From assembly GCA_965231005.1 (NCBI GenBank), contig OZ246405.1, positions 610,709 to 674,708 of the forward strand: a stretch of DNA of 64,000 nt, read 5' to 3'. The first letter of the stretch is position 1. Each line of letters starts with the position of its first letter. Positions 8,531-52,878 of this stretch are shown piece by piece. The position numbers and the translations under genes were made by a program. This DNA comes from an uncultured Gammaproteobacteria bacterium (lineage in GTDB: Bacteria > Patescibacteriota > Patescibacteriia > Magasanikbacterales > UBA922). Under the pieces are notes generated by a model. The model worked only from the letters and a program-made list of their open reading frames with translations. It was not told where the DNA came from and searched no databases.

Positions 8531-8532
8531 AG

Positions 8533-8929
8533 TGGAGATGCCGGGAATTGAACCCGGGTCTAGACGGGTTAGCGTCATAATCTACATGCATAGCTGCTTT
8601 GTTGTTTCATATGATGCTAAAAAAGCAACAAAATAACATCATACTAAGCCTGAATTACTTCAGACAGCATTGTCAGGCAACAATGTTGTCCTACACTCGA
8701 AAAGTTGAGACCGCCGATCCACTATCGAGTATTATGGGGGCGATCGCCGTGGCACTTAAGCTACAGCAGTTGCGAGTGCTGGAGTGCTGAATGCGTTAGC
8801 AATAGCGCTCTTTACTCGATTGACTAAGTTTGCACTTATGTCTTGCCTTTGGGTATTTACGAGAACAAAGACATTCTCGACATGCATATGTACGATAACA
8901 AGATCCATCTATCGAATCCTGTCATCCCC
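8533..8929 (-). ncRNA. ssrA: tmRNA (SsrA)
   Basis: On the minus strand the 5' end is GGGGATGACAGGATTCGA. The 3' end is CCCGGGTTCAATTCCCGGCATCTCCA, a tRNA-Ala-like T-arm. The acceptor pairs GGGGATG/CATCTCC with the G3:U wobble. The internal tag reading frame ends ...GCA CTC GCA ACT GCT GTA GCT TAA (..ALATAVA*). smpB lies immediately upstream. Confidence 0.92.
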
Positions 8930-11418: not shown

Positions 11419-11636
11419 CAATTAACAACTAACAATTATCAATTACCAACTTAGTATAGGGTGTTTTTGGCAGAAAGGAATTAGTTATTAGTTACTAGTT
11501 ACTAGTTATTAGCTAACTAAGTCTAGATCTTTCTTGTATTGACTATTAACTATTAGCTAATAGCTAGTAATACCATTCTCAATATAAAGAGTCTTTCTGT
11601 ACTATTTTGCTAATTGTTAATTGCTAATTGTTAATT
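11419..11636. repeat. ~218-bp AT-rich intergenic element, copy B (inverted relative to copy A at 3691-3906)
   Basis: It aligns end to end with the reverse complement of 3691-3906. Example: CTTAGTATAGGGTGTTTTTGGCAGAAAGGAATTAGTTATTAG here versus CTTAGTATAGGGTGATTTTGGTAGAAAGAAATTAGTTATTAG there. It fills the whole spacer up to the ATG at 11637. Confidence 0.85.
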
Positions 11637-17539: not shown

Positions 17540-17568
17540 TTGACAAAATGGTAAAAATATGGTACAGT
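17540..17568 (+). promoter_or_regulatory. sigma70-type promoter (TTGACA-N17-TGgTACAGT) of the first G+C-rich operon
   Basis: TTGACA at 17540-17545 and TACAGT at 17563-17568, with a preceding TG. The 34-nt block 17537-17570 is 32/34 identical to 21721-21754. Confidence 0.65.
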
Positions 17569-17791
17569 TTGCTGTTTACAGTGCCCATATTGTGTATGAG
17601 CAGCATTTGTTGTGATCTCTTAGATTGTGACAGTTGCCAAGCAATATTTTTTCGCTGAAGTAAGCTAAAAAGTGCTGTAAAAAAATGCACATTACAAATA
17701 CATGATGCACCTATGTGTATTGGATTAGTCAATCAATGGATATTCTTTTTGCTGTCTTTTGATTGACTAACCCAATCAAGGAGGTGCAGTC

Positions 17792-19882
17792 ATGTCACCA
17801 GATCAGAAAAAACCTGATGGTGGTGCACATGGTAGTGCACCGCCGAAACGATCAACACTCGAACTTCATGCTGACAAGATCGTCAGCTTGGTCCAACAAG
17901 ACGGGCCAGAGGAGAACCCCATGACCGACAAGAAGACTGATACAACAACGCCGGGTCATGAGGTTCATGATTCGAATTCTGAAACCCCACCCCCGCTGCC
18001 AAGTGTGCTCGACTCGCTTGCTCCTGAGGACATAGCAAGAATAATAAGAGGAGAATCACAACCACTGCGAAGTGAATTGGTGCGATGTCCGAACTGTGGT
18101 GCTGTCTACCCTATGGATCAGGGAAAGGTCCAGGGTGGTTCTGAAAAGGATCAACAGTGTGTGTTGTGCCTTCATGAATTCACCCTCGGTGATGACAATG
18201 AAGCACAAGCAACAGCACAGTCTGAAACCCCACCACCAGTGCCTTCTTCGAACGTTCCGGCGGACAATGAGAAAATCCAATGTCCGAACTGCAAAACCAC
18301 ATTTCGGTCCATTGAAATCCTGCTTTGGGATCGCAATTACAAGTACGTCGTCTGCAGCCACGGATTCACCATCGATAACGACACTGAAGCACAAGCAACA
18401 GCACAGTCTGAAACCCCACCCCCACCCCCACTTCCGCTTCTCATTGGGGACAATGCCCCAGGTGGGAAGAACGTGACTTGCCCAAACTGCGATAAGGTCT
18501 ATTCACTGGATCCAGCTGACTTTGTAGGTGGTTTCCCGAACGTCTTTCAGTGCGCCCTATGCAATCATTGCTTCACTATCGATGATGAAACTGACGCACA
18601 GGATGACACACCACCTGCAATTCCGACCGCGCAGCAGCGTGCAGACAGAACAGGACTGACTGAGCCGTACAAGCCACTCGCCGACATCAAAGATCCAGAT
18701 GCTGATACGTCCACGATTCGTGAAACCATGCCAAGTCACCCGGGCCAAGCTCGTCGCGCTGAAAGCGATCACTACACGCAGGATGAACTTCCTCGCGTGG
18801 AAGATGAACGTGAAACACGGCAAGACCTTCCTGTTGTCACTGGCGATGATCAAGACACCAAGCCTGACATGGACGTTGTCAAAGCCGAAGACCTCGATGA
18901 AGACGATGCTGCTGAACTGGAAAAGGATGATGGCAAGGAAGCTGAAGAGCTGCCCCCGCCGATTTCAAGTCCCATGTTCAGTCCGGAACTGCGCAAACCA
19001 AACCCTGGTTTTCAGCTGCCTCCTCATCTCGAAGAGGTCGTTCGACTCTCTGCTGCTTCAACTCCCGATTCTCTTGCTTCCGGCGATGACGATCCATTCG
19101 GCGACGGCGGAGATCCCTTTGCTGGCCCAGGCACGAATCCCTTTGCTGTTGACGCAGATGATCCCTTCGGTGCTGAAGTTCCGTTCGGTCCAGGAGATGA
19201 TCTTGGGATGAAGGACGAAGACTACGGTGGTCCGAATGATTCTGTCGACGATGGTGATGAATTGCCTCCTGTCATGCCGGCTGATTCCAGTAAGGCGGCT
19301 CCCAAGCCGTCGCTGATTACTGGTTCCAGACCAAGGTTTCGTCCGACTGGACCTGTGCCTTCGGTTCACGATCAAGACGACAAAAGTGGCCCCCCGCCTC
19401 CTCGTCGTCAAGATCATCGAAAGACAATCCGAGTTCCACGTCATCGGCCGACTGCTCGTCCAGTGCCACCACCACCTCCTGGCCCGGCTCCCATTCGAAC
19501 GCCGACGCCTAGTGGTGGTTCACCCATTCCTGCATCTGCACCTGTTTCTACTCCGCCTCCGGCTGCGAGTACAACAGGACCGTCTGCTGCACCAACCCAG
19601 GCTGCTGCGGCTCCGCCCGCACAGTCACAACCGCCGGCTCCAACTGGGCCAGTGGTTGGTCCGACGGCATCAAGTGGCAGTGCTACTACACCGGTCAAGA
19701 CCAACAAGACCGTTGTGTGGATCATCGCCATTCTGATTGTTGCATGCCTGGCTCTCAATGCCTTTAGCGTGTGGCAAAGCAGAAACATCAGAAAGAACGT
19801 CATCGCGGTTCTGAAACATCGCGCTGGCATCCAAAAGGTCATTCAGGCTCCAATGCCGAAGACCAAGGGGGAAGAGAAATGA
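17792..19882 (+). CDS. G+C-rich tail-anchored protein with three MJ0042-like zinc-ribbon repeats and a long Pro/Asp-rich disordered region
   Basis: ATG at 17792 is preceded by AAGGAGGTG. There are three CPNC...(C/H)xxC units (aa 99-270). Long acidic and Pro-rich low-complexity stretches follow. A single C-terminal TM helix is VVWIIAILIVACLALNAFSVW. The stop overlaps the next start (ATGA at 19879-19882). Confidence 0.75.
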   Translation: MSPDQKKPDGGAHGSAPPKRSTLELHADKIVSLVQQDGPEENPMTDKKTDTTTPGHEVHDSNSETPPPLPSVLDSLAPEDIARIIRGESQPLRSELVRCPNCGAVYPMDQGKVQGGSEKDQQCVLCLHEFTLGDDNEAQATAQSETPPPVPSSNVPADNEKIQCPNCKTTFRSIEILLWDRNYKYVVCSHGFTIDNDTEAQATAQSETPPPPPLPLLIGDNAPGGKNVTCPNCDKVYSLDPADFVGGFPNVFQCALCNHCFTIDDETDAQDDTPPAIPTAQQRADRTGLTEPYKPLADIKDPDADTSTIRETMPSHPGQARRAESDHYTQDELPRVEDERETRQDLPVVTGDDQDTKPDMDVVKAEDLDEDDAAELEKDDGKEAEELPPPISSPMFSPELRKPNPGFQLPPHLEEVVRLSAASTPDSLASGDDDPFGDGGDPFAGPGTNPFAVDADDPFGAEVPFGPGDDLGMKDEDYGGPNDSVDDGDELPPVMPADSSKAAPKPSLITGSRPRFRPTGPVPSVHDQDDKSGPPPPRRQDHRKTIRVPRHRPTARPVPPPPPGPAPIRTPTPSGGSPIPASAPVSTPPPAASTTGPSAAPTQAAAAPPAQSQPPAPTGPVVGPTASSGSATTPVKTNKTVVWIIAILIVACLALNAFSVWQSRNIRKNVIAVLKHRAGIQKVIQAPMPKTKGEEK

Positions 19883-21558
19883 ATACGTTTATCAAGGTGC
19901 TACTCGCCATTCTCATCGGGGTTGTGGTCGCTGTGTCCGGCTACTTCGCATGGGAAACCATGAACACGAACAAGGCGCTCCTCGCTGAACTGAACAAGAC
20001 CGACAACGGTGCCCAGGAGGACACCAAGGTCAAGCCGGCGCCGAAGAAGTCGGCTGTCAAGAAAGCTGACAAGGCTTCCACGTCCCAGGCCAAGACGGCC
20101 GGCGACAAGAACGACCCCAAGAAGGTCGAGGAAGCTGCGAAGGCTGCCGAAGCCAAGAAGAAGGCCGAGGCCGAAGCTGCTGCCAAGGCTGCTGAAGCGA
20201 AGAAGAAGGCTGACGAAGCTCGCAACGACTGGGATGAAATCAACTCCCGTGGCGACGACCAACTCAGAGCTGAGAAGTTCGACGAAGCGTTCAAGACCTT
20301 CAAATCCTTGATCGGACACGAGCATCAGAATCATGGACTGGCTTACTACAACATCGCCTGCCTGTTCTCGGTGCAGTCTGTGTCAGACAAGCTCAAGGGC
20401 AAGAAGAAGGCGATTCGCAAGAGCAAGAAGCAAGCCCTCCACTACCTGGCTCAGGCCTGGGTAGCCGGCTACGACGACCTCGAATGGATGGAGAAAGACG
20501 AGGATCTCGATTCGATCCGCAAGACCCGCGGCTACAAAGAGATCAAGCGTCTGGCAGTGGAAAAGGGACTGGTTCGGCTCCCTGCGCCGGCCACCGAAGA
20601 CGTCGCCAAGAAGGCCAAGGATGAGCAGAAGGAACCCACGCCCAAGCTGACCGGCATCCACGCCCTGCGTGCCATGCCGATCAAGGGAGTTGCCGATTCT
20701 GACGAAGCCAGCAAGGCTGACAAGGACGCCAAGCGCATCGCCAACGCCAACGCCAAGAAGGTCAAGGGCAAGAAGGTTCGCAAAGGCAGCCGCGGCATCT
20801 CGTTCCTGGCCAAGGCTCGAGCCGAAGCCAAGCGGATGTACGCCAAGCTCCACAAGGACCAGAAGGCTCGTCGTGCAGCGCTCAACCGTGCGATCGCCCG
20901 ACTCAAGCGTGGCTACAAGCGCAAGAGCGATCTTGACAAGCAGGACGTTGACGACGAGATCGCAGAGCTCAAGCGAAAGGAGCAGGAACAGTCCGACGAC
21001 GAGGATCGGAAAGCCAAGGAAGAGGCCGAAAGGATGCTCGCCGACGGCAAGACCCAAGACGAGGTCAAGGCTATGTACGATGCTCTGGAGCGCAAGCAAC
21101 AGGCTCGTCGTGCAGCGCTCCTCAGCAAGATCGCGGACGAGCAAAGGCAGGCACGACAGCAGCGTCAGGATGATGCAGTCGACCTTCGCGATGAGATCGC
21201 CAAGCTGCGCGAAGCCGACAAAAAGGCTGACACGCAGTCCGCGGCAGCTGCCAAGGATCACGTGCAAGCCTTGTTCGACAAAGCGCAAGCCGCGACCAAC
21301 CGCGCCAACGCAAAGCGCGCGCGTCAACAGCGTCAGCGTGCGGCAGCGCCCTCGCGTCCGAGCTCGCCGCCCAGCCGTCCGGCTTCGGGTGGTTCGTCCA
21401 GCCTCGCACATGCGCCTGCGGCAGTTTCCAGCTGTCCGTATGGTGGAGACGAGGCCAACTGCGTCAAGAAGACGGTCGCGTACTTGACCAAGTTCGGTAC
21501 GCCCCTGGCCGATGCCAAGGGGAGTGCCAAGGCCAAGTGCAGCGCGCGCTGTCTGTAG
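19879..21558 (+). CDS. G+C-rich N-terminally anchored Lys/Ala-rich coiled-coil protein with a TPR-like segment and a C-terminal 4-Cys module
   Basis: Start ATG 19879 (MNTFIKVLLAILIGVVVAVSGYF is a TM anchor). A TPR-like block is YYNIACLFS...ALHYLAQAWVAGYDDLEWMEKDEDLDSIR. The C-terminus is CPYGGDEANCVKKTVAYLTKFGTPLADAKGSAKAKCSARCL. Confidence 0.72.
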   Translation: MNTFIKVLLAILIGVVVAVSGYFAWETMNTNKALLAELNKTDNGAQEDTKVKPAPKKSAVKKADKASTSQAKTAGDKNDPKKVEEAAKAAEAKKKAEAEAAAKAAEAKKKADEARNDWDEINSRGDDQLRAEKFDEAFKTFKSLIGHEHQNHGLAYYNIACLFSVQSVSDKLKGKKKAIRKSKKQALHYLAQAWVAGYDDLEWMEKDEDLDSIRKTRGYKEIKRLAVEKGLVRLPAPATEDVAKKAKDEQKEPTPKLTGIHALRAMPIKGVADSDEASKADKDAKRIANANAKKVKGKKVRKGSRGISFLAKARAEAKRMYAKLHKDQKARRAALNRAIARLKRGYKRKSDLDKQDVDDEIAELKRKEQEQSDDEDRKAKEEAERMLADGKTQDEVKAMYDALERKQQARRAALLSKIADEQRQARQQRQDDAVDLRDEIAKLREADKKADTQSAAAAKDHVQALFDKAQAATNRANAKRARQQRQRAAAPSRPSSPPSRPASGGSSSLAHAPAAVSSCPYGGDEANCVKKTVAYLTKFGTPLADAKGSAKAKCSARCL

Positions 21559-21578
21559 TCTGATCTGGTGAGAACCTG

Positions 21579-21660
21579 GCTTCCCGGTGCTCGTACGTTT
21601 ATTCGTACTTGCATCGGGAAGCCTCCTCACTTTCTTCTTTTTCTTGAAAAGAGGGGAAAG
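21579..21660 (+). terminator. 3' cassette module: G+C-rich hairpin followed by a CT/AG hairpin
   Basis: GGCTTCCCGGTGC...GCATCGGGAAGCC spans 21579-21623. CTTTCTTCTTTTTCTTGAAAAGAGGGGAAAG spans 21631-21660. Confidence 0.5.
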
Positions 21661-21723
21661 CAGGGAAAATACCTTATTTAAGCCAAAAAAGATAAGTTTT
21701 TATGGTCTATAAAGCCTAAATAC

Positions 21724-21752
21724 TTGACAAAATGGTCAAAATATGGTATAGT
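21724..21752 (+). promoter_or_regulatory. sigma70-type promoter (TTGACA-N17-TGgTATAGT), near-identical copy of the 17540 promoter
   Basis: TTGACA at 21724-21729 and TATAGT at 21747-21752, with an extended -10 TG. Confidence 0.65.
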
Positions 21753-21943
21753 TTCTGGTCAAAATTGATAAAATATATACCCTTATCTATTGGCGTGCCA
21801 GTGCATAATCCATGCAATATGCAGTGCGCGCGAGTGTGATAAGGTACAGAAAATGTACATCGTACATTCTTTGTGTGTCACACCGCTTTCCAGACGTTTT
21901 AACGTCATCCAACAGGTTCATTACATTACTACATCACTACAAC

Positions 21944-22086
21944 TGTTCGATCGGTAAACAAGTTCATAATATTTGTGTACTGCTTTACCGGTCGAACATT
22001 TCACATCGCCTTTCTGACCGGGGGCACAGTTAATTCCAAGGTACGTTACCAAGGAACAAATTGACTGCGCCTGGTTTTCTGGGCGA
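21944..22086 (+). promoter_or_regulatory. conserved structured 5' leader element, copy 1 (143 nt)
   Basis: It aligns along its length with 24885-25027. The long stem is GTTCGATCGGTAAA / TTTACCGGTCGAAC. Further hairpins have conserved stems and variable loops. It lies 27 nt upstream of the ATG at 22113. Confidence 0.6.
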
Positions 22087-22112
22087 CGTGAAACAACAGA
22101 AGGAGGTGCGCA

Positions 22113-23402
22113 ATGGCGTACGCCGTTCGAAAAACCCGATCCGGGGGTGCCGGACAATACGTTTCAGTTTTTTCCGACCGTGCTGCGGTTCTCCGAAAAA
22201 TCGCGCGAGGGATGATCCGCAAGGGTGCGTTCATTCGCGTGGTTCCGGACACGGCTGCTACCAACGATGGCGAGAAGGCCGCAGTCAAGGCTGATCTGGA
22301 TAACGCGGATTTCGTGCTCATCGAGAACCATCCGCATTTCGCTGGCATCAACTTCCCGGCGCCTGCTGACGCTTCGGCTGCTGCGACTGCGGATGCTGCG
22401 GCCACCCGTGCGAATGCCAATGCTGCTGCGGCCAATGTGACCGTTGCGGAGGCTACTGCTGCTCAGGCTCAAACCGAAGCCGACGCTGCTAACGCTCGTG
22501 CCAACGCTGCTGATGCCGCCACTGCTCAGGCCAACGCCGAGGCTACTGCTGCTCAGGCTCGTGTCGACGTTGCCAACGCTGCTGCTGCTCAGGCCAACGC
22601 CGAGGCTACTGCTGCTCAGGCTGCTGGGGATGCTGACGCTCAAGTTGCTGCTGCAGAGGCTGTTGCGGAGGCTGCTGCTGCTCAGGCCGATGCTGCTCAG
22701 GCACATGCCGACGCGGTTCAGGCTGCTGCGGATGCTGCTCAGGCTGCTGCGGATGCTGCTGACGCTGCTACCCAGGCTGGTGCTGCTGCCGGTCAGGCTC
22801 TGATCGCTACCAGTCAAGCTCGGGATGCTGCTGCTGAGGCTGAGGCTGAGGCGCTCGAGGCACAGGCCGATGCGGACGATGCTGCTGCCTTTGCTCAGGC
22901 TCAGGCCGACGAGCGGGCCAATCGCCGTTCGGTTCGGTTCGTCGCGTGGCTGCGTCGCAACTGGAAGAAGGTTCTGCTGGCTCTGCTGGTTCTCCTCCTT
23001 CTCGGTTGCGTGTGGTTCTTCTGGAGCAACATCAAGGCCCTGGTCACGGGGGGTGGTGGTTCGCCGCCGCCTTCGGTGGTGAACCCGCCGACCCCACCGA
23101 CGCCGCCCGTTCCGACGCCGCCCGTTCCGCCGCCGCCGGCTGCGACTCCGGTCGTTCCGCCGCCGACGGTGACGCCTCCGCCACCGCCCGCGACTCCGCC
23201 GGTTTCGCCGACGGTCACGCCTCCGCCGACCCCGCCGACTTCGGGGGGCACGGCAGCGCCGACTGGACAGCCTGGCTGTCCGTTCGGTGTGGGGTACACG
23301 GACTGTTACACCAAGACGGTGGCCTACCTGGTCAGCCATGGTGTGGCGACTTCGGACGCGCAGGACAAGGCGCGCGAGAAGTGCGGACCGCGTTGCAGGT
23401 GA
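22113..23402 (+). CDS. G+C-rich Ala-rich repeat protein with a central TM helix, a Pro/Thr-rich linker and a C-terminal 4-Cys module
   Basis: ATG is preceded by AAGGAGGTG. Repeats of the AAAQANAEATAAQA type occur. TM helix WKKVLLALLVLLLLGCVWFFW. A PPTPPTPPVPTPPVPPPP linker follows. The C-terminus is CPFGVGYTDCYTKTVAYLVSHGVATSDAQDKAREKCGPRCR. Confidence 0.72.
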   Translation: MAYAVRKTRSGGAGQYVSVFSDRAAVLRKIARGMIRKGAFIRVVPDTAATNDGEKAAVKADLDNADFVLIENHPHFAGINFPAPADASAAATADAAATRANANAAAANVTVAEATAAQAQTEADAANARANAADAATAQANAEATAAQARVDVANAAAAQANAEATAAQAAGDADAQVAAAEAVAEAAAAQADAAQAHADAVQAAADAAQAAADAADAATQAGAAAGQALIATSQARDAAAEAEAEALEAQADADDAAAFAQAQADERANRRSVRFVAWLRRNWKKVLLALLVLLLLGCVWFFWSNIKALVTGGGGSPPPSVVNPPTPPTPPVPTPPVPPPPAATPVVPPPTVTPPPPPATPPVSPTVTPPPTPPTSGGTAAPTGQPGCPFGVGYTDCYTKTVAYLVSHGVATSDAQDKAREKCGPRCR

Positions 23403-23410
23403 TGTAGCCT

Positions 23411-23500
23411 GTTGGAGGGAAGCCCGCTACCGGCGCATGCATTCGTGTGTGTGTCCGGTAGCCCTCCAACCGCTTTCTTTTATAAAAGAGAAAGAGGTTG
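23411..23500 (+). terminator. 3' cassette module: G+C-rich hairpin plus an overlapping CT/AG hairpin
   Basis: GTTGGAGGG (23411-23419) pairs with CCCTCCAAC (23462-23470). CCAACCGCTTTCTTTT...AAAAGAGAAAGAGGTTGG (23465-23500) reuses the 3' arm, so the two structures are mutually exclusive. Confidence 0.5.
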
Positions 23501-23824
23501 GGGGAATACAAAATTAGAAATTGGAAATTAGGGATTAAGTGTATTGACATATTGAGTAATAGAGAAAAGAAATTTTCTTTAGTACTCAGGGTGTCATGTA
23601 GACATTATTGTAAAATTACAATGTGTCTCGTGTCCTGATTAGACAGGTTCATTATAATTTAGTTGAAGAATAACTATCTGGTGGGTAAAAAGATAATATA
23701 CATATGTTACTTTTTTTCTCACCAGATAGTGGCACGTGCCGCTTGTTTCTTCGTCGCCCTTGGGGCATTTCACAAATGGCCCCATCGGTGAGGAGGGGCA
23801 AGGCAACAACAACAGGAGGACGCG

Positions 23825-24724
23825 ATGAACATCCGTCTCGTTTCGTTCATGATCGTCGCATCGGTGACGGTCGGTTTCATTTCCATCAACTCATTCGCGC
23901 AGGCACCGGCCGACTACCCAGCCGTTCGCGACGATGCGCACAAGGGTGCTTCGCTCGCCGAGTCCAACGCCAAGCGCCTGACCGCCCTGGAGAAGCGGAT
24001 CAAGCGGCTCAAGCGCGCCAAGGCTGCGGCCAAGGCCAAGCACACGGCCAACCCGACCCCCGCCAACAACGTCGCTCTGAAGGCCGCGGTCCGCGCGCTC
24101 GACGAGGCCAAGAAGGCAGGTCTGTCCATGTGCGCCCTGAAGACTGGCGAGGATTTCCGGCACTGCATCGACGTCGTGGAAGGCAAGGTGTTCGAGGTGG
24201 AGAAGGACTCCATCCGGATGGCCGCGCTGCTCGCAGTCGGCTGCATCGTGAAGGAGAACAAGTCCACAGATCCTTCCAAGGGTTCGAAAAAGGGCGCATC
24301 CATCACGACCACCGAGCTCGTCTGCGACAAGGACAAGGCCAAGAAGGCGCCGCGCTGCATCCGGTTCAAGCGCTTCAGCAAGCACGCGCACACCTACTTC
24401 GACGTCGGCGGTGACAACTGCAAGGAAGAAGACAGCAACCCGCTGCCCAAGAAGCCGGCGACTCCGCCCAAGCCCAAGGCCGAACCGTGGTCCAAGGGCA
24501 AGCGTTTGCTGGCCAGCGCTGGCATGTGCCTGCTGGCCGGTGGTGTGCTCGCTGTTCCTGGTTACGTCATCGGCGACGCCATCGAGGGCGGTCACTGGGA
24601 GACCAATCCGGAGACCGGCAACGACGACTGGTATGCGCCCAAGGGTCCGCTCGGTGCTGGCATCGGCGGTCTGACCGGCTGCCTCAGCGCGTTCGCGGGC
24701 ACATGGAGTGCGACGAGCGAGTAG
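23825..24724 (+). CDS. G+C-rich secreted/membrane protein, function unknown
   Basis: ATG is preceded by AGGAGG. Signal peptide MNIRLVSFMIVASVTVGFISINSFAQA. Lys/Ala-rich helix. Several Cys residues. C-terminal hydrophobic Gly-rich segments (LLASAGMCLLAGGVLAVPGYVIG; GAGIGGLTGCLSAFAG). Confidence 0.68.
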   Translation: MNIRLVSFMIVASVTVGFISINSFAQAPADYPAVRDDAHKGASLAESNAKRLTALEKRIKRLKRAKAAAKAKHTANPTPANNVALKAAVRALDEAKKAGLSMCALKTGEDFRHCIDVVEGKVFEVEKDSIRMAALLAVGCIVKENKSTDPSKGSKKGASITTTELVCDKDKAKKAPRCIRFKRFSKHAHTYFDVGGDNCKEEDSNPLPKKPATPPKPKAEPWSKGKRLLASAGMCLLAGGVLAVPGYVIGDAIEGGHWETNPETGNDDWYAPKGPLGAGIGGLTGCLSAFAGTWSATSE

Positions 24725-24748
24725 CCTTTCTTCAACTGCTGAATCTGT

Positions 24749-24826
24749 CGGGGGTTGGTAGCATGTTCATTCATGTCTGTCAACCCCCGTCGGAATATCT
24801 TTCTCTTTGTAAAAAGGGAGAGATGA
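24749..24826 (+). terminator. 3' cassette module: G+C-rich hairpin followed by a CT/AG hairpin
   Basis: CGGGGGTTG (24749-24757) pairs with CAACCCCCG (24781-24789). ATCTTTCTCTTTGTAAAAAGGGAGAGAT spans about 24797-24826. Confidence 0.5.
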
Positions 24827-24884
24827 ACGATTATTGTTCATTACAATTGAGAAACTACTACAGAAACATCTTGAATACCTTTTG

Positions 24885-25027
24885 TGTTCGATCGGTAAAC
24901 AAGTACATAACATTTGTGTACTGCTTTACCGGTCGGACATTTCCACATCGCCTTTTTGACCGGGGGCACAGTTAATCCGTGGCGTGTTGCCGCGGACCAA
25001 ATTGACTGCGCCTGAGAAATTGGGCGA
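24885..25027 (+). promoter_or_regulatory. conserved structured 5' leader element, copy 2 (143 nt)
   Basis: Homologous to 21944-22086. The stem substitution A to G keeps pairing as G-U. One hairpin is replaced by CCGTGGC-GTGTT-GCCGCGG. It lies 44 nt upstream of the ATG at 25072. Confidence 0.6.
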
Positions 25028-25071
25028 TTGTGGAATGATTCGGGCGAGACCCGAGAAAAGAGAGGTAACTC

Positions 25072-28000
25072 ATGAACAGCAAGCTCAACACGATTTCCGT
25101 TTGTTTCGTGGCGCTGATGATCGTTTTCGGGTGCAGCCCGGACGCGAGCTACAAGCCCAACGACCCCAAGAACCCCAACCCGGCCCGCAAGGCCGATGCC
25201 AACAACAGCGACACCAGCAGCGCGGATGCGGGTTCGAGCGCGGATACCGGTCAGCCGACCGATCCGTGCGCCGATCCCAAGTTCTGCAACGATGGCAAGG
25301 TCTGCACGGCCGACACCTGCAAGGACGGCAAGTGCAAGCACACCATCGACGCGACGCTCTGTGATGACGGCAACCCCTGCACACATGACCTGTGTGACGA
25401 CCTGGGGATCTGTGTGAACAAGGCTCACGAAGGTTCGTGCCAGGACGGGAATGCCTGTACTGTGGGTGATCATTGCAAGAATGGCACCTGCCAGTCGGGA
25501 AAGAACATGCCCTGTCCCAACGAGAACTCGTGTGTCATCGCAACCTGCAACCCGAAAGAAGGCAAGTGCAACTACGAGCCCAAGAGCGGTGACTGCAACG
25601 ACGGCAACAAGTGCACGGTTGGCGATTTCTGCATCAACCAGAAGTGCAAGAGCGGTTTCAAGAAGTTGGACTGTGATGACAAGAACGTGTGCACGACTGA
25701 CAGCTGCAATCCAGAAGACGGTTGTGTTCACAAGCCGATCGACCTTCCCTGCAGCGACAACAGCTCGTGTACCATCTCGGATAAGTGCAAGGACGGAAAA
25801 TGCGTGGGCCAGGTTGTCAACTGCGACGACAAGAACCCGTGCACGACCGACTCGTGCGATCCGGCGGCGCCCCCGGGCAAGGCATGCAAGCACGTGAACA
25901 ACACCAGCGAGTGCGACGACGGCAACAAGTGCACGTCCGGCGACGTTTGCCAGGATGGTCAGTGTAAGAAGGGAACCACGTCGGTCGATTGCGACGACGG
26001 GAACCCGTGCACTACCAATTCCTGCGACGCCAAGGTCGGCTGCCAGAAGCTCAACAACAACAACTCGTGCGACGACGGCAACAACTGCACCATCAATGAC
26101 AAGTGCTTTAACGGCAAGTGCAACTCCACTACCAAGAAGTGTGGCGACAGCAACAAGTGCGTCACCAACACGTGCGACCAGGCAACTGGCGCGTGTGTGA
26201 AAAAGGAGCTGTGCGACGACGGCAAGGCCTGCACCGAAAACACGTGCGACATCAACACCGGCAAGTGCGAAAACCCTGACAAGAAGTGCGACGACGGCAA
26301 GGCCTGCACCAAGGATAGCTGCAACACCACCACGGGCAAGTGCGAGTACGAGATGATCGTTGGTGCGAACTGCTTCTGCAAGTTCGACTCCAACTGTGAC
26401 GACGGAAACGAGTGCACTGTCAGCGCATGCGATAAGGCGACTGGCAAATGCGCGCTCGCGAAGAAGTACAGCGGGACCTCGTGTGACGACGGGAACCCGT
26501 GCACCACCTCGGACAAGTGCGACCCCAAGACCGGCAAGTGCTCGTCGGCAAAGGCCACGGCCTGCGACGACGGGAACCCCTGCACGGACGACTCCTGCGA
26601 CCCCACGGTCGTTGGCGGTTGTGTGGCGGTGAAGAACAACAAGCTGTGTGACGACGGTGACGCGTGCACCAAGGGTGATATCTGCCTGGACGGCGCGTGT
26701 AACCCCGGCAAGGCCCCGGTCTGCGACGACGGCAACATCTGCACGGATGACAGCTGTGACTCGAAGCTCGGATGCAAGAACACGGCCAACTCGGCCAGCT
26801 GCTCGGATGGGAGCGCCTGCACCTCAAACGACAAGTGCGAGGGCGGGAGCTGCAAGAGCGTTGCGGTGAAATGCGACGACTCCAACCCCTGTACCGACGA
26901 TAGCTGCGACGCGAAGGTCGGCTGCAAGTACGCCAAGAACACCAAGCCGTGTAACGACGGTGACGAGTGTACCATCAGCGAGGTGTGCAAAGACGGCAAG
27001 TGTGGTTCTGGCAAGGCCAAGTCGTGCGACGACAACAAGAAGTGTACCATCGACTCGTGCGACAAGGACAAGGGCTGCCAGCACAAGCAGATTTCCTCGG
27101 CGACCTGCTGCGCTTCGGACGCTGAGTGCGACGATAAAAAGCCGTGCACGGTGGACAAGTGCGATCCGAAGGAAGGTTGCAAGAACACCAAGAAGCTCTG
27201 CTCGGACAACAACCAGTGCACCGACGACGTGTGTGATCCCCAGTCTGGAGATTGCAAGCACACGAAGTTCAGTGGACCGGCCTGCGACGACGGCAACAGT
27301 TGTACCAAATCCGAGAAGTGCGAAAAGGGCAAGTGCGAAGCTGGCTTTACCATCAAGTGCAACGACAACAAACCCTGCACCAAGGATACGTGCGACACCA
27401 AGGGCGGATGCGTCTTCACCAAGACCGTGGATCCCTGCGACGACGGGGACGCGTGTACGAATGGAGACAAGTGCGCCAATGGCGAGTGCGTGTCTGGCAA
27501 GCAGATCGTCTGCGACGACAACAAGGTCTGCACGACCGACAGCTGTGACTCCAAGAAGGGGTGCGTGTTCGCGAACAATTCGGATGCCTGTACGGACGGA
27601 AACGCCTGTACACCGAATGACGTCTGCAAGGACGGCAAGTGCTCGTCGCAGCCTGAGAACTGTGACGACGCGAACGCGTGTACCAACGACAGTTGTGACA
27701 AGAGCAAGGGCTGCAAGCACATCAACAACACCAAGGTCTGCAACGACGGCAACAAGTGTACGGACAACGGAGTCTGCAGTGGCGGCGCCTGCAAGCCGGG
27801 CAAAGCCATCAACTGCGACGACGGCAAGAAGTGCACGACGGATAGCTGTGACCCGACCACGGGCAAGTGCAAGAACGTGGCGCTGGTGTGCGATGACGAC
27901 GCCTGTACGGATGGCGATGGCAAGTGTGACGAGAGCACGGGCAAGTGTGCAGTGGGTCTTCCCAAGAACTGCACTGACACCGACGTGTGTACCAAGAATT

Positions 28001-28593
28001 TCTGCTCGGAAGGAACCTGCAAGGTCTCTCCGAACTGCGATGACGGGAACGCATGCACGGCTGATAGCTGTGACCCAAAGAAGCCCGAGAAGGATCAGTG
28101 TTCGCACGTCCCGATCTCGGGTTGCAAGTCGGTCGAGGTCAAGCTCTCCGTGGTTTTTTCTGAGATGTTCAAGATGGAAGCCGCACCCAAGGGTGGCAAC
28201 TACGTCCGGTTCTTCGTCAAGAAGTGCGAGGCCAAGGCTGCTGACGGCTCGTCCGTCATGTTGCTCAAGCCTGGCTCCTTCTACGGAGGCGCTGAGATCA
28301 AGAACAGCTCGAAGCTCGAGTACACCAATCCTGCAAAGGTCCAGGACTTCGTGCAGATCCCGAAGAATGCCTGCTGCATCAACATCGTAGGGTACCAAAG
28401 CAGTAAGATCTCCAATCCTTACGGGGACTCGAAGATCTGGGCTTTCAGTACGACTCCCAATACCAAGACCCACAACATGGAGCCGGTCCTCACGACCAGC
28501 AATGGACTGACGTACAAGTTCACGTTGAAAGACGTCCATGACAACGGTGTGGGGGGATACGACGCGTGCAACAGCGAAGTCATCTCCAAGTAG
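25072..28593 (+). CDS. G+C-rich giant Cys-rich repeat lipoprotein (CDDGNxCTxDxC-type repeats, roughly forty copies) with a distinct C-terminal domain
   Basis: The N-terminus MNSKLNTISVCFVALMIVFGC is a probable lipoprotein signal. From about aa 66 to 985 there are ~24-aa units in two alternating flavours: CDDxNxCTxDxCDxxxGCxH and CxDGNxCTxxDxCxxGxC. The last ~180 aa are non-repetitive. Confidence 0.85.
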   Translation: MNSKLNTISVCFVALMIVFGCSPDASYKPNDPKNPNPARKADANNSDTSSADAGSSADTGQPTDPCADPKFCNDGKVCTADTCKDGKCKHTIDATLCDDGNPCTHDLCDDLGICVNKAHEGSCQDGNACTVGDHCKNGTCQSGKNMPCPNENSCVIATCNPKEGKCNYEPKSGDCNDGNKCTVGDFCINQKCKSGFKKLDCDDKNVCTTDSCNPEDGCVHKPIDLPCSDNSSCTISDKCKDGKCVGQVVNCDDKNPCTTDSCDPAAPPGKACKHVNNTSECDDGNKCTSGDVCQDGQCKKGTTSVDCDDGNPCTTNSCDAKVGCQKLNNNNSCDDGNNCTINDKCFNGKCNSTTKKCGDSNKCVTNTCDQATGACVKKELCDDGKACTENTCDINTGKCENPDKKCDDGKACTKDSCNTTTGKCEYEMIVGANCFCKFDSNCDDGNECTVSACDKATGKCALAKKYSGTSCDDGNPCTTSDKCDPKTGKCSSAKATACDDGNPCTDDSCDPTVVGGCVAVKNNKLCDDGDACTKGDICLDGACNPGKAPVCDDGNICTDDSCDSKLGCKNTANSASCSDGSACTSNDKCEGGSCKSVAVKCDDSNPCTDDSCDAKVGCKYAKNTKPCNDGDECTISEVCKDGKCGSGKAKSCDDNKKCTIDSCDKDKGCQHKQISSATCCASDAECDDKKPCTVDKCDPKEGCKNTKKLCSDNNQCTDDVCDPQSGDCKHTKFSGPACDDGNSCTKSEKCEKGKCEAGFTIKCNDNKPCTKDTCDTKGGCVFTKTVDPCDDGDACTNGDKCANGECVSGKQIVCDDNKVCTTDSCDSKKGCVFANNSDACTDGNACTPNDVCKDGKCSSQPENCDDANACTNDSCDKSKGCKHINNTKVCNDGNKCTDNGVCSGGACKPGKAINCDDGKKCTTDSCDPTTGKCKNVALVCDDDACTDGDGKCDESTGKCAVGLPKNCTDTDVCTKNFCSEGTCKVSPNCDDGNACTADSCDPKKPEKDQCSHVPISGCKSVEVKLSVVFSEMFKMEAAPKGGNYVRFFVKKCEAKAADGSSVMLLKPGSFYGGAEIKNSSKLEYTNPAKVQDFVQIPKNACCINIVGYQSSKISNPYGDSKIWAFSTTPNTKTHNMEPVLTTSNGLTYKFTLKDVHDNGVGGYDACNSEVISK

Positions 28594-28802: not shown

Positions 28803-28831
28803 TTGAATAATAGTGTTTTTTCAAGTATACT
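28803..28831 (+). promoter_or_regulatory. sigma70-type promoter (TTGAAT-N17-TATACT), probably giving a leaderless or near-leaderless mRNA
   Basis: The -35 is at 28803-28808 and the -10 at 28826-28831. The ATG at 28838 lies only 7 nt after the -10 box. Confidence 0.55.
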
Positions 28832-28837
28832 GTGAAT

Positions 28838-30271
28838 ATGAAATCGCCAAATTTCTTATCTTATTTTTCACACAACCAGCTTAAAAAAACACATGTACTT
28901 GGTGTCTCTTTTATTATTATAATAATGACAGCCGCCCTTTTACTATTTTGGGATATATATCCTCTAGCAATTATATTCCTCATAGGATTAGTAGGAATAT
29001 CCACATTTGCTCTAAAACCAGAGTGGGGATTGTACAGTGTTCTCTTTCTTGGACTATTTCATGGATGGGTCATAGATTTTTCTACATATCAGAGCGTCAA
29101 ACATATTCCATATCTTCCTCAGATCAATGCTCCTTTGGTTGATTTCTTTGCGATTGTTTTATTCATTGGAGTTTTTCTTTTATATTTATTTCAATTTCAA
29201 AAATTAGCTATTTTGAAACGTCTAAGACACATCAAAACAGGAATAGTTATATATATTCTTTTTCTTATCACAGCACTTGCAGCTGTTTTTTTTGCATTTA
29301 ATAATTTTTTTACACCAAGTATAAAATATTTTATGCGACCGCTGGTGTTTGTGTTTGTTTTGTATTGGCTCTTGCCAATTATTCTTATTAGAACAAAAAA
29401 ACAATTTTCATCTGTAATGAAACTATGGTTCTGGACTGGTATTGGCATTGCAATATTTGGTTTGATATCTTTATTTGTTCTTGGGCAAACAGGATGGATT
29501 CGTGTTGTTCCATTTGGCATAAAAGGGTTTGCCCCACTTGGATACAATCATAATCAACTTGCAGAAGTATTAATTTCTTTATTTCCTGCTGGACTATTTC
29601 TTTTCTTACGAAGTTTTTCAAAAGAAGAAAAAAGATTGTATGGTTTTGGAACATTTTTTATTATTATCATTGCACTCCTAACACTTTCTCGGGCTGCTTG
29701 GGCTGCAGTACTTGTACAAGTAGGCTTTCTCTTTTGGTTTTTCCGTTCAGCAGTGCGTCCATTCATGTATAAATTTCAAAAGATAACCACGCTATTATTG
29801 ATAGCAATTATTCCAGCTATTCTTTACATGAGTGTTTTTCTTGGATCGTCCATTGTAAAAAGTTCAACAAATGCCCGAGTGGAAGCAACAAAAATCGCAT
29901 TATTTTATACTGTTCGTTCTCCAGTCGTTGGATATGGTCCTGGTATGTTTGGCTATGTTATGGATGACACGTTTTTGTACACGCTCGAATTTGGAGAGTC
30001 GCTTGATGCACATGGGTTTATTCAAAAAGTCATGTTAGAAGAAGGATTTCTTGGCTTGCTGTTCTTTGTTGGTTTTTTGGGTTGGATATTGTGGTATATA
30101 TATCAGGCAAGAGAACATGGCATGCAAAGAGATCTTGTTGAGGTATTATTTGTCATGGCAATAGGAGCAATTATTTTTCAACTATTTAATACGTCCTATT
30201 TTAATTCTGTAATGTGGTTGCCACTTGGGGTGGCCACTGCTGGAACGCTTCTTTTAAAAAATGATTCCTAG
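28838..30271 (+). CDS. O-antigen ligase/polymerase (Wzy_C) family membrane protein
   Basis: About 10-12 TM helices. It carries a Wzy_C-type loop motif (ALLTLSRAAWAAVLVQ). Confidence 0.75.
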   Translation: MKSPNFLSYFSHNQLKKTHVLGVSFIIIIMTAALLLFWDIYPLAIIFLIGLVGISTFALKPEWGLYSVLFLGLFHGWVIDFSTYQSVKHIPYLPQINAPLVDFFAIVLFIGVFLLYLFQFQKLAILKRLRHIKTGIVIYILFLITALAAVFFAFNNFFTPSIKYFMRPLVFVFVLYWLLPIILIRTKKQFSSVMKLWFWTGIGIAIFGLISLFVLGQTGWIRVVPFGIKGFAPLGYNHNQLAEVLISLFPAGLFLFLRSFSKEEKRLYGFGTFFIIIIALLTLSRAAWAAVLVQVGFLFWFFRSAVRPFMYKFQKITTLLLIAIIPAILYMSVFLGSSIVKSSTNARVEATKIALFYTVRSPVVGYGPGMFGYVMDDTFLYTLEFGESLDAHGFIQKVMLEEGFLGLLFFVGFLGWILWYIYQAREHGMQRDLVEVLFVMAIGAIIFQLFNTSYFNSVMWLPLGVATAGTLLLKNDS

Positions 30272-51483: not shown

Positions 51484-52504
51484 GGTATATTTTTTCGGTT
51501 GAAATTATCATTTTTTCAAGAGAATATGCTTGCACATCCTTGTATGCTTGGGATGCCAAGGTCTCCAAGGTTTTTTTGTGCTCAATTGCGTATATAATAT
51601 TTTTTGATAAATGTTCAATATCTTGAGATTTGGTCAGTAGACCATTTTTTTTGTCTTTTACCAAAGAACTGACTCCTCCTACATCTGAAGCAATAACTGG
51701 AATATGTGAAGACATGGCTTCTAGAATCACATAGGGAAGTCCTTCTTTTCTAGATGGAAGAATAAAGAGGTCAAATGAGGGGAGCAAATTTGCAGCATTA
51801 TCGATATTTCCAGTAAGGTGGACAATCTGCGTTAGCCCTTTTTGTAATATTATTTTTTCAAGTTTCTTTCGATGGGGTCCATCTCCAATAATGATACATT
51901 GGATTTTTTCCTTTGTTTTTTTGTCTAATTTGGCAATTGCATAAAGTAATATATCCACCCCCTTTGTATTATAGAAATTTGCAATTGTTCCGAGCCAGAT
52001 TTTTTGGATGTCTACATGTTGTTTAGTATATTTGGACAGTTCTTTTTTTGCATCATCTTGATTTAGGATGGTTTTTTCATTAATCATTGATATTCCAAGG
52101 GGGACCAGGTGTATTTTTTTTGTACTAATACGGAGTTTTTTTTGTGCGTCTTTTTCGTCTTGTGGAGATAGTACAATAACAGCATCTTTTAGTTTTGATG
52201 TTATGTATTCTAAAAATATATATGTGCTTTTCAATAATGTACTGATTTGTTCGTTAAAGACCCATCCATGAGCTGTATAGACGATTTTTAATGGTTTTCT
52301 ATAGAATATTTTTACAAGAGAACCAAGCACGCCTGCTTTAGAGCTATTAAGATGAATGATATTTGGTTGAATCTTTCTACATAGCAATATTATTTCTACA
52401 AGTGCAAGAAGATCGTTACTAGGGGATAGTCTTCTAAGAAGAAAATTTAGCTTAAATAAGGAGATTTTTGTCTTTTTTTCTTTATTGGAGTGCATGATTT
52501 TCAT
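51473..52504 (-). CDS. glycosyltransferase family 4 whose conserved N-terminal segment lies upstream of the first canonical start codon
   Basis: C-terminal motif PSRKEGLPYVILEAMSSHIPVIASDVGGVSSLV. The frame stays open upstream to 52687. There it encodes LKILYIITQDTWGGAQRYVFDTAIHL, the normal GT4 N-terminus, without any ATG, GTG or TTG. Confidence 0.6.
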   Translation of the reverse strand: MKIMHSNKEKKTKISLFKLNFLLRRLSPSNDLLALVEIILLCRKIQPNIIHLNSSKAGVLGSLVKIFYRKPLKIVYTAHGWVFNEQISTLLKSTYIFLEYITSKLKDAVIVLSPQDEKDAQKKLRISTKKIHLVPLGISMINEKTILNQDDAKKELSKYTKQHVDIQKIWLGTIANFYNTKGVDILLYAIAKLDKKTKEKIQCIIIGDGPHRKKLEKIILQKGLTQIVHLTGNIDNAANLLPSFDLFILPSRKEGLPYVILEAMSSHIPVIASDVGGVSSLVKDKKNGLLTKSQDIEHLSKNIIYAIEHKKTLETLASQAYKDVQAYSLEKMIISTEKIYLTE

Positions 52505-52878
52505 TGAAAGGTCTCCTTTTTTCCCTTTTTTTCCAAATGCAACAAAGATTTTATGCTCTCTTTTGGAGAGATGAATTGCAGTATCAAAAACATATCTCTG
52601 GGCACCTCCCCAGGTATCTTGCGTTATAATATATAGAATTTTTAGCGTGTTGTCTTTTTTGATATTTTTATTTAAACACTTTTTTCGCTAAATGTAGTAT
52701 AGTATGGTTGCAAGAAATTTTCAAATTCAGCAAGAATCTGTAGATATAGGCTTAGTTATCCACATATGGTGCACTATTAGTGCAAAAGTATAGATAGTGT
52801 GGTATAATTTATGTATGAACTGTACGCAGTCCATATTTGTGTAATGCAGTCATAGTTTTTAAAAAGAAGAATTACGTT

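Follow-up and report, generated by a model that had tools for sequence, protein, structure and literature searches.

Strong Shine-Dalgarno sites accompany GC-rich, probably imported genes in a segment of a Magasanikbacterium genome whose native genes start largely without them

The 64,000-nucleotide stretch of contig OZ246405.1 analysed here (referred to as the window) belongs to a member of Candidatus Magasanikbacteria, a lineage of the candidate phyla radiation (CPR, Patescibacteria), with ~35% GC and a genome of about 1.2 Mb; the FtsZ protein encoded in a neighbouring 10-kb segment of this genome shares 70-73% identity with proteins named Candidatus Magasanikbacteria and 79% with one further protein. 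A genome scan with the native PPDK protein yielded no relative, and the genome is accordingly absent from the set of species representatives. Nearly all native genes of this bacterium lack a Shine-Dalgarno (SD) sequence and most carry a U directly before the start codon, whereas six GC-rich genes, gX and g1 to g5, are each preceded by a strong SD site at canonical spacing. The explanation that we favour, with moderate confidence, is that the GC-rich genes were imported and domesticated and that their SD sites have been kept by selection, which implies a host that is able to use them.

Shine-Dalgarno sites of native and GC-rich genes

SD strength was calculated as the duplex energy of positions -20 to -3 against the canonical anti-SD sequence ACCUCCUUA, which may not be that of the host, and the native set comprised 47 genes with computationally called start sites from the window and from the adjoining 10 kb (locus L001). 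The energies for g1 to g5 and gX are -12.7, -10.5, -13.0, -10.3, -9.1 and -9.5 kcal/mol, respectively. For the native genes the median is +0.2 kcal/mol (n=47); one of the 47 reaches -8 or below and two reach -6 or below, which matches the rates in randomly placed windows of native DNA (1.0% and 4.3%). A preliminary description of this DNA had drawn a line between native and island genes, and expressed as free energy this distinction is complete (Mann-Whitney U=0, p=4e-5). Since merely 1.8% of random plus-strand windows within the GC-rich block reach -9 kcal/mol, the presence of an SD in six of six GC-rich genes is not an artefact of composition. The result is also robust to the choice of start codon because native SD sites are still almost absent when the best of all candidate starts within the first ~60 codons is taken. 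In a k-mer test, no non-canonical upstream motif was enriched in the native genes, which yielded A/T-rich words only.

The native genes at background level include those for ribosomal proteins and an initiation factor (rpmI, rplT and infC), and SDs are similarly rare upstream of 62 neighbouring genes from three related genomes (loci L008, L010 and L014). When the four genomes are pooled, an SD of -8 kcal/mol or stronger precedes nine of nine GC-rich genes vs 3 of 109 native genes (Fisher p=2e-11). The earlier claim that the host initiates largely without SD is thus borne out in the 47 native genes and in the neighbours from the related genomes, and every native start that had been listed as SD-less does lack such a site. 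The SD motifs named for the GC-rich genes are all present as well; GGAGG at 4583 and GGGGGAAGAG at 19867 were placed exactly, and the other four coordinates were 2-5 nt off, AAGGAGGTG lying at 17778 and 22100 instead of 17774 and 22095, AGGAGG at 23814 instead of 23812 and AGAGAGGT at 25059 instead of 25056. The statement that exceptions among the native genes are weak at best overlooked a strong AAGGAG at 52513-52518. A second gene of native composition, the first called gene of L010 (73 aa), is preceded at good spacing by AAAGGAG (L010 126-140). These few well-spaced sites hint that SD pairing is perhaps not wholly unused by the host. No rRNA gene was found in the window or in the other loci examined.

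Start signature of the native genes

The native starts share a different feature: T (U in the mRNA) occupies position -1 in 38 of the 47 (81%; e.g., starts 567, 3910, 9601, 11637, 12838, 46589, 53457 and 56145) vs 22-25% before arbitrary ATGs and none of the six GC-rich genes, and G is never found there (0/47). A makes up 30-49% at all native upstream positions without a peak at -3 (36%), leaving T at -1 as the sole sharp signal in a region that is A/T-rich and G-poor (14.5% G at -15 to -5 vs 20% overall). U at -1 is also found in 67-78% of the neighbour genes of the three related genomes, and pooling the four genomes gives 82 of 109 native vs one of nine GC-rich genes (p=2e-4). In Escherichia coli, U at -1 has been associated with an extended interaction with the anticodon loop of the initiator tRNA.

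Consensus promoters of the type TTGACA-17-TAnnnT, often with a TG extension, were found nine times (1.1 expected), and their positions imply SD-free native leaders of ~45 nt for rpmI, ~40 nt for gene 36142, ~22 nt for gene 56145 and ~0 nt for gene 28838. The last of these had been described as apparently leaderless, which is plausible by pattern, the -10 element being followed by 6 nt and the ATG. The predicted folding energy of the region from -30 to +30 lies between -5.9 and -13.9 kcal/mol for the GC-rich genes vs a native median of -4.3 kcal/mol (p=3e-4). By default, the housekeeping and envelope genes of the host start translation independently of SD. Their leaders are 0 to 45 nt long, rich in A/U, poor in G and only weakly folded and end in U at -1, or they are missing altogether.

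Architecture of the GC-rich cassettes

The GC content of the window is 31-40% except at 17.8-28.6 kb (52-62%), which harbours g1 to g5 and is called the island or block below, and at about 4.5-5.5 kb, where gX is located. The GC-rich genes have a GC content of 0.54-0.66 vs about 0.35 in native genes, and a GC content at third codon positions (GC3) of 0.45-0.84 vs about 0.23 (native range about 0.17-0.33). All short-read metagenome assemblies of this strain are interrupted within the GC-rich genes (about 4826-4833, 20466, 22781 and 27851), which would speak for a chimeric assembly or for contaminant DNA joined to a CPR contig; the breaks, however, fall at internal repeats. Both junctions between native and GC-rich DNA are crossed, at 99.99-100% identity, by contigs that stem from two separate runs within one sequencing project, and therefore the block is not an assembly chimera. 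It moreover has native DNA on either side and native-type promoters inside, and the homologous situation in L010-L013 was assembled independently from four different samples, so that an artefact of this kind is extremely improbable.

The GC-rich genes are organized as cassettes in which a native-type consensus promoter is followed by a folded leader of 85-355 nt, the SD, the GC-rich coding sequence and a strong terminator (Table 1). g1 and g2 form a single unit via an ATGA overlap, and leader lengths are roughly 85 nt (gX), 220 nt (g1) and 355 nt (g3). The island intergenic DNA, including the leaders, has a GC content of only 41-45%. A special promoter class for the GC-rich genes was considered and rejected, as the same TTGACA(AAA)-17-TAnnnT precedes tRNA-Asp, rpmI and other native genes. 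As far as can be read from the sequence, a native-type promoter and a terminator for each unit show that the genes have been domesticated.

Several parts of the cassettes are related to each other. The promoters of g1 and g3 differ at 2 of 29 positions, g3 and g5 have in common a structured leader element of ~150 nt, and a module of ~45 aa in which four Cys are conserved forms the C terminus of both g2 and g3 (E=3e-12; plus strand, 21412-21552 and 23256-23396). This module follows a Pro-rich linker, has the pattern CP.G....C..KTVAYL...G......A..KC..RC and matches no family. The near-identical promoters, the common leader and the common module show that regulatory and coding parts were duplicated within the block after its formation. 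In the g3/g5 leader element, 53 predicted pairs are accompanied by one compensatory and three one-sided changes and no broken pair between its two copies, which differ only in loops or in ways that preserve the pairing. Two metagenome matches to its 19-mer core, tried as further copies, were chance hits, one in a coding region and one on a 67% GC contig without wider similarity, and the leaders had no Rfam match at the gathering score or at E<=1.

In the predicted folds, upstream segments pair with the translation initiation region (TIR) of g1, g4 and g5. The anti-TIR stem of g1 has 13 bp and closes over a perfect hairpin (17719-17776; z=-8.0). The probabilities of being unpaired for SD and AUG are 0.37 and 0.00 in g1, 0.34 and 0.00 in g4, and 0.16 and 0.14 in g5; g3 is predicted to be partly open and gX to be open. 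An upstream open reading frame of eight codons (17702-17728) overlaps the 5' arm of the g1 stem.

Table 1. Features of the GC-rich cassettes, individual native features of the window and gX homologs in other loci (energies in kcal/mol; leader pairings are predictions)
Feature	Position	Strand	Description
gX promoter	4484..4512	+	TTGACA-17-TATACT with TG extension, native type; same architecture upstream of homologs in L008, L010, L014 and L018
gX SD	4583..4587	+	GGAGG, 8 nt before ATG; -9.5
gX	4596..5423	+	275 aa orphan; GC 0.61, GC3 0.70
Two hairpins 3' of gX	5438..5526	+	second with T-run (terminator-like); fold -45.6
g1 promoter	17540..17568	+	TTGACAAAATGGTAAAAATATGGTACAGT; near-identical to g3 promoter
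g1 anti-TIR segment	17700..17712	+	ACAUGAUGCACCU; predicted pairing with 3' half of SD and AUG (about 17782-17795)
g1 SD	17778..17786	+	AAGGAGGTG; -12.7
g1	17792..19882	+	696 aa; three zinc-ribbon repeats, Pro-rich region, C-terminal transmembrane (TM) segment; GC3 0.45 (intermediate)
g2 SD-like site	19867..19876	+	GGGGGAAGAG; within 3' end of g1; ATGA overlap, translational coupling; -10.5
g2	19879..21558	+	559 aa; N-terminal TM segment, Lys/Ala/Glu-rich coiled region, TPR end domain, Cys C-terminal module; GC3 0.72
Hairpin after g2	21578..21624	+	GC-rich, followed by T-rich tract (terminator-like)
g3 promoter	21724..21752	+	TTGACAAAATGGTCAAAATATGGTATAGT; 11/12 consensus, TG extension; about 355-nt leader downstream
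g3 structured leader element	21945..22095	+	shared with g5; two long hairpins; z=-8.1
g3 SD	22100..22108	+	AAGGAGGTG; -13.0
g3	22113..23402	+	429 aa; Ala-rich repeats, central TM segment, Pro-rich linker, Cys C-terminal module; GC3 0.60
Hairpin after g3	23405..23470	+	GC-rich (terminator-like)
g4 SD	23814..23819	+	AGGAGG; -10.3; predicted partial pairing with 23585-23587 or 23716-23720
g4	23825..24724	+	299 aa; signal-like N-terminal segment; GC3 0.84; no family match
Two hairpins after g4	24744..24826	+	terminator-like
Segment upstream of g5 leader element	24877..24883	+	UACCUUUU; predicted pairing with g5 SD
g5 copy of structured leader element	24886..25040	+	z=-8.5
g5 SD-like site	25059..25066	+	AGAGAGGT; -9.1
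g5	25072..28593	+	1173-aa lipoprotein-like protein; Cys-rich CxDGNxCTxDxC repeats (Pfam Dicty_CTDC, 1.5e-92); GC3 0.82
Leaderless candidate, Wzy_C gene	28803..28840	+	TTGAAT-17-TATACT at 28803-28831, 6 nt, ATG 28838; pattern only
Native SD	52513..52518	-	AAGGAG before GT4 gene starting at 52504; -8.7; sole strong case with native composition in the window
gX homolog, L008			SD-poor background of 42% GC; GC3 0.69; SD -10.8
gX homolog, L010 (= L019, named Magasanikbacterium)			SD-poor background of 34% GC; GC3 0.84; SD -9.1
gX homolog, L014			SD-poor background of 45% GC; GC3 0.76; SD -8.6
gX homolog, L017			GC3 0.70; start at contig edge; -3.9 on 26 nt of upstream sequence
gX homolog, L018			31% GC background; GC3 0.29, ameliorated; GGAG, -6.6; same promoter type, long leader

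The products of the island look like envelope proteins of the membrane, secreted or lipoprotein type, and the block adjoins a big native cluster of glycosyltransferase, O-antigen-ligase and sugar-modification genes. Exact-sequence entries in the protein collection searched are lacking for gX and for three of the five island proteins. The AlphaFold model of gX, a confident one (predicted local distance difference test score, 77), gave no significant fold match in the PDB.

Origin of the GC-rich genes

The codon usage of the GC-rich genes is inverted relative to the native genes: AAG accounts for about 90% of Lys codons (native 28%), ATC for about 90% of Ile codons (native 10%), and TTA is never used. 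As the enrichment covers G-ending and C-ending codons alike and there is a shift in the use of amino acids (gX favours Arg over Lys), the pattern appears to bear the mark of a GC-rich mutational background and not of tRNA-matched optimisation. The use of Lys over Arg in g5 was examined as a sign of long residence and dismissed, the whole protein family being Lys-rich and Arg-poor. g5 has thousands of relatives; those named among the best 120 all come from Myxococcales, Deltaproteobacteria, Binatia or similar, and the best match lies on a contig with 70.6% GC in which about half of the genes have an SD. g1 and g2 contain domain matches to the MJ0042-type zinc ribbon and the TPR end domain, types that we take to be common in Myxococcota.

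The gX family is small, with 12 members among 1.84 billion representative proteins. Its closest relative (46% identity) is encoded in L017, on a contig of uniformly 59% GC with tightly packed genes and GGAGG sites. In the CPR genomes, gX is a solitary gene found at another locus each time. The homologs in L008, L010 and L014 (37-40% protein identity) are GC3 outliers among 18-23 neighbours (most of them 0.14-0.50) and are the gene, or one of very few, with an SD. In L016 (9604-11945), from an SD-using genome of 52% GC, a distant family member and its two neighbours have GC3 values of 0.72-0.80 vs 0.44-0.60, and the family may travel in GC-rich patches in this genome too.

Import from G+C-rich, SD-using donors is accordingly shown in part: for g5 and gX it follows from their relatives, and for g1 and g2 it is suggested by the domain types. 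In the preliminary description, the imported genes were said to keep donor-type signals. The foreign composition and the relatives of g5 and gX in GC-rich, SD-using DNA agree with this; an undigested donor block does not fit, and a passive relic probably does not. An intact donor block is contradicted by the low GC content of the intergenic DNA, a native-type promoter before each unit and the lack of mobility genes or flanking repeats. A viral origin was rejected, as gX, g1, g2, g4 and the small open reading frames of L017 have no PHROG match and no viral contig encodes a gX relative; g3 has a single weak Zot-like PHROG match in a low-complexity region. There was no PADLOC match that would indicate origin from a defence system.

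The same genes could instead form an expression class that was never imported, in which GC content, SD, folded leader and 3' hairpin are jointly selected against A/T mutation pressure, e.g., for a stable mRNA or switchable translation. The limitation of high GC to the coding sequences (flanks of 29-45% GC in all four CPR contexts), the conserved cassette architecture, a GC3 that is independent of the host (0.84 in a 34% GC host) and the distribution of the rare gX family, for which five of seven contexts examined are SD-poor and CPR-like, speak for such a class. We nevertheless regard it as quite unlikely: the closest gX relative resides in uniformly GC-rich, SD-using DNA, the GC3 of one CPR copy has fallen to 0.29 by amelioration, the relatives of g5 come from GC-rich phyla, the enrichment of G- and C-ending codons and the shifted amino acids have the look of mutation-bias ancestry, and the ribosomal protein genes show neither feature.

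Proposed retention of the Shine-Dalgarno sites

According to the favoured explanation, six genes with membrane, secreted or lipoprotein-type products would have been acquired from G+C-rich, SD-using donors and each made into a cassette that starts with a native promoter of the sigma-70 type and is closed by a strong terminator. Their GC-rich coding starts and long leaders are expected to fold stably and would therefore be loaded poorly by the structure-sensitive, SD-independent route. A strong SD could serve as a foothold for the 30S subunit and supply the missing affinity, for which reason it would be kept by selection. Pairing of the leader with SD and AUG in g1, g4 and g5 may additionally gate translation or make it conditional. 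The model assumes a host 16S rRNA with a usable CCUCC tail.

Retention by selection is indicated by the persistence of the SD in half-ameliorated g1, which combines a GC3 of 0.45 with a perfect AAGGAGGTG, and in the ameliorated homolog of L018; by implication, these hosts would have a usable anti-SD. It could be argued that the SDs are a pure relic, having come with recent imports into a host whose anti-SD is lost or occluded, so that the genes are poorly translated or decaying. The native SD frequency at background level would agree with this, as would the detection of the anti-SD motif in just 48% of Parcubacteria (PMC9297842), the almost unameliorated codon usage of g2 to g5 and gX, as in recent arrivals, the lack of any other homolog of g1 and the lack of exact matches for three island proteins and gX. 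A relic, however, would hardly consist of six long intact reading frames, each with a native promoter of consensus type and a strong terminator, nor would it account for the SD in nine of nine GC-rich genes over four genomes, for the SDs kept in g1 and in L018, or for the well-spaced SDs before some genes of native composition. As the combination of high GC and SD recurs in gX homologs of 37-40% identity in three SD-poor genomes, the sites are probably not passive relics, and we consider this alternative unlikely.

A number of points weigh against import followed by selective retention. The host might be unable to read the SDs, given the frequency of the anti-SD motif in Parcubacteria (PMC9297842). 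The leader structures and the gating are thermodynamic predictions, and the shared leader exists in just two copies. The homolog search with g1 returned g1 alone, and the import of g1 to g4 is read from composition. No integrase or transposase was found in the window with Pfam, PHROG or NCBIfam, there is no direct repeat of >=10 nt at the island borders, and no tRNA gene lies there, the only one (6723-6799) being separated from gX by 1.3 kb and from the island by 11 kb. The GC content of the island intergenic DNA, far below that of the genes, runs contrary to a simple en-bloc transfer. Within the gX family, GC3 does not track host GC and most members examined are in CPR-like genomes; its GC-richness could be maintained rather than donor-inherited.

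A further-reaching version of selective retention would have two initiation regimes in one cell. SD-independent initiation at a "U-1 AUG" would be the default for housekeeping genes, and an SD-dependent, leader-gated mode would serve GC-rich surface, adhesin-like and orphan genes, with SD and AUG locked until a signal arrives (host contact, temperature or a ribosome change such as loss of bS21), and imported genes would be recruited to this mode and kept. We put this forward as speculative and rather unlikely in its full form.

Comparison with known systems

Compositional islands that ameliorate towards their host are textbook knowledge (the Lawrence and Ochman model). The GC-rich genes resemble them in their atypical GC content and codons, in having relatives in distant phyla and in the stages of the gX family, which range from a GC3 of 0.84 to 0.29. 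Unlike typical islands, they have no integrase, tRNA target or flanking repeats, their intergenic DNA and promoters are host-like, and they look individually domesticated, with duplicated regulatory parts. Leaders that sequester the SD are known from RNA thermometers and riboswitch platforms, and S-layer genes have long stabilising 5' untranslated regions. Long stable 5' hairpins, envelope products and upstream pyrimidine stretches predicted to pair with SD and AUG (g1, g4 and g5) are in line with these systems; in contrast to thermometers and riboswitches, there is no Rfam family, the element has two copies only, and no logic of ligand or temperature is legible in the sequence.

The best-studied SD-poor group is the Bacteroidia. 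In Flavobacterium johnsoniae, the anti-SD is present and is occluded by bS21, bS18 and bS6, and rpsU is a rare SD-bearing gene (PMC6847099, PMC7797042, PMC9976891); the start signature consists of Kozak-like A at -3, -6, -12 and -13 (PMC6847099). Here as there, SDs are scarce even in ribosomal protein genes, initiation would be tuned by weak structure and by the nucleotides just 5' of the AUG, and a tiny set of genes has strong SDs. The present lineage belongs to the CPR, however, and its signature is U at -1 (75-81%) instead of the Kozak-like pattern (A at -3, 36%), and the SD-bearing genes are GC-rich, probably imported surface-protein genes rather than rpsU. With the Kozak-like signature missing, we do not assign the window to the Bacteroidia mechanism. 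The bS6 and bS21 proteins of CPR bacteria have been reported to be enlarged, which we mention as a lead only.

Tsurumaki et al. (2022; PMC9297842) detected the anti-SD motif in 48% of Parcubacteria and tied its loss mainly to a subgroup that lacks uL1; Magasanikbacteria are filed under "Parcubacteria 1" and are not stated to lack the motif. The native genes of the window share with the anti-SD-less Parcubacteria the superphylum neighbourhood and a predicted SD-independent initiation. That study, by contrast, scores rRNA and not mRNA, and contains nothing on SD-bearing imported genes. In L008 (17356-19376), rplJ-rplL is preceded by a NUDIX gene and not by rplK-rplA, a context that may be relevant to the published loss of the anti-SD in uL1-lacking Parcubacteria.

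Other features of the window

The native genes of the window also include those for PPDK, infC, rpmI, rplT, smpB, tmRNA and tRNA-Asp. The tmRNA gene (8532-8929, minus strand), located next to smpB, encodes a predicted tag peptide, ANLVNRVKSAIANAFSTPALATAVA, which is unusually long (25 aa). An intergenic element of ~220 nt occurs in two copies with 89% identity upstream of different genes (window 3689-3912; L001 7471-7689). It contains tandem TTGCTAATTG(T) motifs, and the same motifs are found directly before the starts at 3910 and 11637 (about 11600-11636).

Implications

SD-poor lineages, above all the Bacteroidia, a reduced detection of the anti-SD in a subgroup of Parcubacteria, and islands with amelioration were known before. 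New are the view of a Magasanikbacterium at the level of mRNA, U at -1 as a start signature, and an SD-bearing minority made up of recurrent GC-rich, domesticated and, by prediction, leader-gated envelope or orphan genes. In CPR bins, GC-rich genes of this kind are probably both called and assembled too rarely, and gene-calling programs trained on the AT-rich majority may overlook them or mis-assign their starts.

CPR bacteria are uncultured episymbionts whose rules of gene expression are almost unknown. The present analysis provides mRNA-level evidence that one CPR lineage translates nearly all of its genes from starts that lack an SD and strongly favour U at -1, which had previously been hinted at from rRNA only. 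If the SD sites of the GC-rich genes are functional, the organism would be a naturally occurring example of a minimal cell with two modes of initiation; the sites would then provide a rule for which foreign genes are expressible after transfer into an SD-poor host, and the genes that carry them a shortlist of probable host-interaction proteins.

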